Positions 11,243-12,068 of a DNA stretch of 64,000 nt are shown piece by piece. Source of the DNA: Escherichia coli (GTDB taxonomy: Bacteria > Pseudomonadota > Gammaproteobacteria > Enterobacterales > Enterobacteriaceae). Where the stretch lies: NCBI RefSeq assembly GCF_003334405.1, contig NZ_QOWM01000003.1. One strand, 5' to 3'. Within the stretch, counting starts at the first letter, position 1. The number at the start of each line of letters is the position of its first letter. The notes under the pieces were generated by a model that was not told the origin of the DNA, did no database searches, and worked only from the letters and a program-made list of their open reading frames with translations. The position numbers were made by a program, and so were the translations under genes.

Positions 11243-11989
11243 ATGGCATTACTGGAAATTTGCTGTTACAGCATGGAATGTGCACTAACGGCGCAGCAAA
11301 ACGGCGCAGACAGAGTTGAATTATGCGCAGCCCCAAAAGAGGGGGGCTTAACGCCGTCGTTGGGTGTACTGAAATCCGTGCGCCAGCGGGTGACGATCCC
11401 TGTGCATCCGATAATTCGCCCACGCGGTGGTGATTTTTGCTACAGCGACGGTGAGTTTGCCGCCATTCTTGAGGATGTGCGCACGGTCCGCGAATTAGGT
11501 TTTCCTGGACTGGTGACGGGCGTTCTCGATGTTGACGGGAATGTCGATATGCCACGAATGGAAAAAATAATGGCTGCTGCCGGTCCGCTGGCAGTGACTT
11601 TTCATCGCGCCTTCGATATGTGCGCTAACCCTTTACATACACTCAATAATCTTGCGGAATTGGGCATTGCCCGGGTACTGACATCAGGGCAAAAATCAGA
11701 CGCACTGCAAGGTTTATCAAAAATTATGGAACTTATTGCCCATCGTGATGCTCCAATCATTATGGCCGGAGCAGGAGTCCGTGCAGAAAACCTGCACCAC
11801 TTCCTCGATGCCGGAGTGCTGGAAGTCCATAGCTCCGCGGGAGCGTGGCAAGCCTCACCGATGCGTTATCGTAATCAAGGATTGTCCATGTCATCAGATG
11901 AACACGCGGACGAGTATTCGCGTTATATCGTAGACGGGGCGGCGGTTGCTGAAATGAAAGGAATCATTGAACGCCATCAGGCCAAATGA
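11243..11989 (+). CDS. cutC: Copper homeostasis protein CutC (248 aa)
   Basis: 248-aa [42 protein letters not shown]. Confidence 0.93.
11728..11758 (+). promoter_or_regulatory. Candidate sigma-E promoter inside cutC (GGAACTT -35, ~16-nt spacer, TCCAA-like -10) driving MicL
   Basis: ggaactt at 11728..11734 followed 16 nt later by ctccaatca; position is about 306 nt upstream of the cutC terminator, matching the reported ~308-nt MicL transcript. Confidence 0.45.
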
Positions 11990-12068
11990 TTTTTACCGTT
12001 GCATCATGTCGCCCAATATGATGCTTGCTCGTACCAGGCCCCTGCAATTTCAACAGGGGCCTTTTTTT
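11763..12068 (+). ncRNA. micL: sRNA MicL (RyeF), encoded within the cutC 3' coding region and 3' UTR; ends approximate
   Basis: Established knowledge that MicL starts inside cutC and shares its terminator; internal sigma-E-like promoter and terminator hairpin plus T-run at 12036..12068 seen in the sequence. Confidence 0.5.
12036..12068 (+). terminator. Intrinsic terminator after cutC / MicL
   Basis: aggcccctg-caatttcaa-caggggcct hairpin followed by ttttttt. Confidence 0.75.

Follow-up and report, generated by a model that had tools for sequence, protein, structure and literature searches.

The question raised by this locus is whether the 3′ part of cutC does something other than encode protein. 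In the stretch of Escherichia coli DNA analyzed here (64 kb; hereafter the window, whose numbering is used unless MG1655 is named), cutC occupies positions 11243..11989 of the plus strand (248 aa in the list of open reading frames, stop codon TGA at 11987..11989) and corresponds to the gene annotated as cutC in E. coli genomes. A first-pass annotation, made from the sequence alone, had placed the small RNA MicL (RyeF) inside this coding sequence, together with its promoter. Three independent lines of evidence support that identity: (i) a full-length match to an Rfam model, (ii) identity to the annotated locus of MG1655 and (iii) the primary literature on the same sequence.

For the first line, a scan of the whole window with Rfam 15 places RF02654 (MicL) at 11761..12068 on the plus strand, where model positions 1–308 of 308 are covered without truncation. 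The match reaches 381.9 bits (gathering score, 56; E = 2.1e-115), although three-quarters of the model is cutC coding sequence and the score is therefore partly a measure of cutC homology. For the second, positions 11690..12110 match MG1655 1958399..1958819 (reverse complement) at 100% identity, with the promoter and the 3′ end at the same place; the MG1655 annotation at this locus is the ncRNA micL (b4717, 1958441..1958747, minus strand), overlapping cutC (b1874). For the third, a 308-nt transcript is known to arise from a sigma-E-dependent promoter in cutC, and an 80-nt form containing the cutC 3′ UTR represses lpp (Guo et al. 2014, PMC4102768). MicL has the same orientation as cutC, covers the 3′ part of that gene and its 3′ UTR, and lies upstream of torY (start at 12377); the MG1655 layout is identical. 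Taking the best explanation jointly and as a whole, we regard it as practically certain that the locus is the micL gene of a K-12-like E. coli chromosome. MicL in cutC is already known, fully annotated and well characterized, and as such it is not new.

The entire window is collinear with MG1655 from 1,970,508 to 1,906,509 (reverse complement) and differs from it by 11 substitutions, without insertions or deletions. None of the 11 falls within MicL or its promoter region from -65 to +20. The 1201 nt from 11200 to 12400 were matched in all 5,426 complete E. coli genomes searched, with at least 80% in one place in 5,423 of them. One of the 11 differences from MG1655 lies in cutC itself, a T>C change at 11636 that replaces Tyr132 with His (Y132H); it is located 125 nt upstream of the MicL start, outside the promoter region tested in the literature. 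The same base is found in strains such as DA33133, which is 100% identical over 11200..12400.

The boundaries of the RNA can be stated exactly. The primary transcript extends over 308 nt, 11761..12068 (+), as given by the Rfam model, by the MG1655 annotation and identity and by published mapping. The 5′ end is 11761 according to Guo et al. and Rfam (a position 226 nt ahead of the stop codon, which gives 308 nt), whereas the RefSeq b4717 start maps to 11762; the first-pass annotation, with a start near 11763 and a length of about 306 nt, was correct as to the approximate place and off in the exact values. The published processing site lies between 11988 and 11989, and the 80-nt processed and active form, MicL-S, begins at the last base of the stop codon and occupies 11989..12068 (+), an assignment that combines the published data with sequence, fold and conservation. 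The proposal of an approximately 80-nt form corresponding to the cutC 3′ UTR is thus borne out, and its limits (11990..12068, 79 nt) are corrected by one nucleotide.

MicL-S is degraded by a 5′-monophosphate-dependent exonuclease and is therefore a processing product, and both MicL and MicL-S bind Hfq (Guo et al. 2014, PMC4102768). The cut is made by RNase E, which is directed by two tandem stem-loops at the 3′ end and cleaves at a fixed distance from the first of them, stem-loop A (Updegrove et al., bioRxiv 10.1101/341578). The determinants of cleavage are located 3′ of the cut site and are independent of 5′ sequences (bioRxiv 10.1101/341578).

The corresponding structures are readily identified in the window. 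The 80 nt of MicL-S fold with an energy of -28.8 kcal/mol (z = -5.15), a value equaled by none of 200 shuffled sequences. Stem-loop A, with 9 bp and a 6-nt loop, is found at 12001..12024 in both the fold and the alignment. It is followed by the seed, TGCTCGTACCAG, at 12026..12037 (MicL-S positions +38..49), which pairs with lpp coding positions +16..28. The intrinsic terminator at 12036..12068, also seen in both fold and alignment, consists of stem-loop B (12036..12062; a G+C-rich stem of 9 bp and a 9-nt loop) and a U-tail encoded by a run of 7 T at 12062..12068, confirming the strong terminator that had been read at these positions. The 3′ end with its U-tail is predicted to be the Hfq-binding end and likely serves in this way. 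Both stem-loops and the single-stranded U-rich stretch at the 5′ side of MicL-S are present and conserved at the level of sequence and fold.

The promoter of the RNA lies within cutC. Direct reading and a motif search identify a -35 element, GGAACTT, at 11728..11734 and a -10 element, TCCAA, at 11752..11756, both on the plus strand and separated by a 17-nt spacer at 11735..11751. The elements span cutC codons 162–172 and end 4–5 nt before the mapped start of MicL. Upstream of them, the A/T-rich segment from -65 to -35 (11696..11727, +), part of the tested minimal promoter (-65 to +20), shows little third-position variation and is probably an UP element; sigma-E promoters are known to have such elements (Rhodius et al. 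2012). The sigma-E-like promoter reported earlier within cutC is confirmed, and the pattern GGAACTT-N15-17-TCNAA has this one match in both strands of the 64-kb window, where 0.06 are expected from dinucleotide shuffles. The earlier spacer length of 16 nt, on the other hand, was a miscount, and the text of Rhodius et al. 2012 contains no explicit spacer convention for sigma-E promoters that would account for it.

We calibrated the spacing on the micA and rybB promoters of MG1655, in which the spacer measures 16 nt and the -10 element ends 6 nt before the start, compared with 17 and 4–5 nt in micL. From the -35 element to the start, micL measures 26–27 nt in total and micA and rybB 27 nt, and the geometry is therefore compatible with these promoters, although not of the most common type. 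A simple scan for sigma-70 promoters and terminators picked up neither the MicL promoter nor its terminator; this carries no weight, because sigma-E promoters are outside its scope and the 9-nt terminator loop exceeds its 8-nt limit. In MG1655, sigma-E induces a fusion carrying micL positions -65 to +20, the strength of which comes close to that of the micA and rybB promoters (Guo et al. 2014, PMC4102768).

An important question for a promoter embedded in codons is whether its bases are constrained as DNA or simply follow from the protein sequence. We collected 56 cutC loci from species-representative genomes and aligned the codons of 44 Enterobacteriaceae and 7 outgroup sequences. Three loci with truncated cutC frames, attributable to frameshifts or assembly errors (L052, L053 and L055), and three distant non-enterobacterial homologues were left out of the codon analysis. 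The sample contains no cutC loci from Klebsiella, Enterobacter or Cronobacter, for which the exact peptide patterns used in the search returned none; Guo et al. 2014 (PMC4102768) state that MicL is conserved in these genera.

Across the 44 Enterobacteriaceae, the GAACT of the -35 element is invariant, its first G is present in 43 and its last base is T (26 sequences) or A (18 sequences). The -10 element is TCCAA in all 44. At the same time, the residue at codon 162 (the source of the first G in the -35 element) is M, R, T, L, A, K or I, and that at codon 170 (the source of the T in TCCAA) is A, V or T. The spacer is fixed at 17 nt in length and freely variable in sequence. Third codon positions are invariant in just 10 of 247 codons; six of these belong to start or Met codons, and of the remaining four, three (codons 163, 170 and 171) fall within the two promoter elements. 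Mean third-position entropy from -65 to +1 is 0.87, against 1.29 for the gene as a whole, and the seven lowest-entropy windows among 225 of the same size all overlap this segment, in which the amino acids vary. Such a profile fits an UP element followed by a core promoter. The promoter bases are fixed while the encoded amino acids change, which argues for constraint at the nucleotide level; judged from the alignment, PmicL is conserved as DNA and not as protein.

Does the rest of the transcribed coding sequence also contribute to the RNA? The first-pass annotation had part of the cutC region doing the work of a small RNA, and this holds for the promoter, where constraint is seen at the nucleotide level, but does not extend to the 228 coding bases of the MicL body (codons 174–248), which show no constraint beyond coding. 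The third-position entropy of these codons is 1.36, no lower than the 1.30 found upstream of the promoter, and published truncations place all regulation of lpp in MicL-S (PMC4102768). Both results disfavor a separate function for this segment, whether as a sponge (or decoy), as another regulatory arm or through coupling to cutC translation, and we consider it quite unlikely that it is anything other than a passive leader that is discarded. The regulatory part of MicL is the 3′ UTR.

The seed within this 3′ UTR was compared with its published target. Because lpp lies outside the window, we paired MicL-S positions +37..50 from the window with the MG1655 lpp mRNA. The best duplex joins MicL-S +38..49 to lpp +16..28 by 12 pairs with one bulged U (-17.9 kcal/mol), and the predicted site is exactly the published one; 30 of 2000 shuffles (1.5%) match this energy. 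Taken alone, the pairing offers modest support, and it is the published compensatory mutagenesis that is decisive. The seed-restricted test replaced an unrestricted RNAduplex comparison of whole MicL-S or MicL with lpp, which gave over-extended and meaningless duplexes (-46 and -152 kcal/mol; 57 of 1000 shuffles did equally well).

Published experiments on the identical sequence establish that the RNA depends on sigma-E, is cleaved by RNase E, binds Hfq and represses lpp, and they also account for the copper phenotype. Dependence of micL on sigma-E was demonstrated for the MG1655 sequence by tiling array, Northern blot, a promoter-GFP fusion and a PmicL mutant (PMC4102768). In both mRNA-seq and ribosome profiling, lpp was the sole target seen (Guo et al. 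2014, PMC4102768). Mutation of MicL-S +41..44 abolishes repression and a compensatory change at lpp +21..25 restores it, and promoter point mutations that preserve CutC reproduce the copper sensitivity of a cutC deletion (PMC4102768).

It could be argued that the 80-nt RNA derives mainly from processing of the full-length yecM-cutC mRNA, with the internal promoter in a minor role. MicL-S can indeed also come from the cutC mRNA (Guo et al., PMC4102768), and the RNase E determinants need nothing 5′ of the cut (bioRxiv 10.1101/341578). Point mutations in PmicL, however, nearly abolish both MicL and MicL-S, and a sigma-E-dependent transcript from upstream of cutC was not seen (PMC4102768). The strong conservation of the internal promoter as a nucleotide sequence likewise argues that it matters. 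Processing of the full-length mRNA is thus a real but minor route to MicL-S, and we judge it very improbable that it is the principal one.

The arrangement favored here, a small RNA gene transcribed from PmicL, must also be weighed against another reading, in which there is no independent RNA gene but merely the 3′ end of the cutC mRNA with its terminator and a sigma-E-like motif that arose by chance. The pattern is short and in two parts, 6 of 100 shuffled windows contain at least one match to it, and the dependence of the Rfam score on cutC homology points in the same direction. Against this, the two promoter elements show little or no change across 44 species in which the amino acids and the spacer do vary, and they are absent from outgroups that retain part of the same amino acids. 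The cutC genes of Morganella, Edwardsiella and Limnobaculum keep Leu-164 and Pro-171 throughout (Glu-163 in Morganella only), but these genes lack the promoter motif and use other codons, for example GAG CTG ... CCG. An Rfam MicL match was obtained for 18 of 18 Enterobacteriaceae loci scanned and for neither of the two outgroup loci examined in this way, from Morganella and Edwardsiella, and the outgroup cutC 3′ UTRs bear no resemblance to MicL-S. Conservation of the 3′ UTR also greatly exceeds that of the coding sequence: across the 44 species MicL-S hardly varies, with the identical 80 nt in 16 of them (Escherichia, Citrobacter and Salmonella), whereas cutC coding sequence identity is only about 77% (median). 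Finally, promoter-GFP fusions, induction by sigma-E and protein-preserving promoter mutations that nearly abolish MicL, all on the identical sequence (PMC4102768), speak directly against coincidence. For MG1655 the PmicL mutant and the promoter fusion have already refuted a chance motif, and for the present locus we consider it extremely unlikely.

Within MicL-S, the substitutions that do occur respect the predicted structure. The GTACCAG portion of the seed is invariant in the 44 species. None of the 9 pairs of stem-loop A is broken in 21 distinct sequences, all changes being one-sided (G-C to G-U and the like). None of the 9 pairs of the terminator stem is broken either, and two of them, in Franconibacter and Siccibacter, have changed on both sides in a compensatory manner. 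With so little variation in the sequence, support from covariation is limited. In Edwardsiella, the cutC terminator (GGCCCC...GGGGCC and a T-run) is preceded by GTAC and faintly resembles the GTACCAGGCCCC junction of seed and terminator in E. coli; this likeness could be due to chance or could hint at the ancestral state that gave rise to MicL-S.

A small protein or a dual function can be dismissed as vanishingly improbable and without support: short open reading frames do overlap the MicL region on both strands, but they are mechanical, the frame at 11967..12113 (48 aa, TTG start) runs through the terminator and exceeds an RNA that ends at 12068, conservation stops directly after the terminator T-run in a pattern that suits RNA stems and a seed rather than codons, and compensatory base-pair mutations demonstrate an RNA mechanism (PMC4102768).

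These observations and the published data on MicL are best explained by the following sequence of events. On envelope stress or on entry into stationary phase, RNA polymerase containing sigma-E would start from the promoter in cutC codons 162–172 and would transcribe the final 226 nt that precede the cutC stop codon, then the stop codon itself and the 3′ UTR as far as the cutC terminator, producing the 308-nt MicL. RNase E, guided by the two tandem 3′ stem-loops, would then cut before the last base of the stop codon and release the 80-nt MicL-S. With Hfq, the single-stranded seed between the stem-loops would pair with lpp codons 6–10 and block translation. The untranslated lpp mRNA would be degraded and Lpp, the most abundant outer-membrane lipoprotein, would fall, which would relieve envelope stress and feed back on sigma-E activity.

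Several features of the surrounding DNA deserve comment. Seven of the 11 substitutions relative to MG1655 cluster in 11636..15466 (cutC, torY and torZ), which could be a small recombination patch or a local accumulation of mutations. Compared with MG1655, torZ (13502..15931) contains two in-frame premature stops, at 14297..14299 and 15464..15466, both G>A changes in TGG Trp codons (codon 266 to TAG and codon 655 to TGA), as well as two other substitutions, and is probably a pseudogene in the strain studied. Its best match among the 5,426 complete E. coli genomes is 99.9% rather than 100%, and the 10 records listed annotate it as plain torZ and do not mark it as a pseudogene; the exact allele seems to be absent from that collection. 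In DA33133 and at least 11 other strains, an IS1A element is inserted between the cutC/MicL terminator and torY (2618..3315 of locus L001, equivalent to about 12317 in the window, which lacks the insertion). The annotated transposase gene of this element begins about 250 bp beyond the MicL 3′ end, and MicL should be intact in such strains, while expression of torYZ may be affected.

Other RNA matches lie elsewhere in the window. At 47265..47409 we find the overlapping antisense pair SraC/RyeA (-, 175 bits) and SdsR/RyeB (+, 114 bits), as annotated in MG1655. A match to the Rfam ES036 sRNA at 16004..16046 (-; 45.5 bits, gathering score 37.6) is located between the convergent 3′ ends of torZ and cmoB. 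An Rfam match named 'cspA thermoregulator' at 62898..63358 (+; 135.5 bits) has many non-canonical pairs and covers yobF-cspC, not cspA. Its score probably comes largely from the homology of the cspC and cspA coding sequences, and it is therefore no evidence of a thermosensor.

The micL locus is a textbook example of how a protein-coding gene can conceal the gene for a regulatory RNA. It also bears on the name of its host, since the copper sensitivity for which cutC was named is due to the loss of MicL and not of the CutC protein (PMC4102768). As a positive control, the locus demonstrates that a gene-internal small RNA can be recovered from a reading of the sequence alone, although a track of open reading frames is blind to such genes. 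The signature of the hidden promoter, fixed promoter bases under changing amino acids, is usable in a search for gene-internal promoters that are as yet unknown.

A comparison with known systems places the locus precisely. The sequence is the same as that of MicL/RyeF of K-12 (b4717) over the promoter, transcript and terminator, and the position in cutC, the boundaries of the 308- and 80-nt forms, the two 3′ stem-loops and the lpp-complementary seed are all the same; Y132H in cutC and 10 other substitutions in the window, all outside the RNA and its -65 to +20 promoter, are what distinguishes it from MG1655. MicA and RybB are the other two sigma-E-dependent, Hfq-binding small RNAs of E. coli and have many targets each. 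MicL shares with them a sigma-E-type promoter (GAACT... TC..A), an Hfq-type terminator tail and the repression of abundant outer-membrane proteins. MicA and RybB, however, come from intergenic genes that stand alone and have a spacer of 16 nt and a gap of 6 nt, whereas the MicL gene sits within a coding gene, its promoter has a 17-nt spacer, the RNA requires processing and lpp is its single reported target. In a second respect, MicL resembles small RNAs that are released from 3′ UTRs by RNase E, such as CpxQ from cpxP; in each case the 3′ end of an mRNA serves as the active RNA and shares the terminator of that mRNA (bioRxiv 10.1101/341578). CpxQ is made only by processing of its parent mRNA, however, whereas MicL has its own promoter in the upstream coding sequence, and the synthesis of MicL is thereby uncoupled from that of cutC. 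ArcZ is likewise processed by RNase E.
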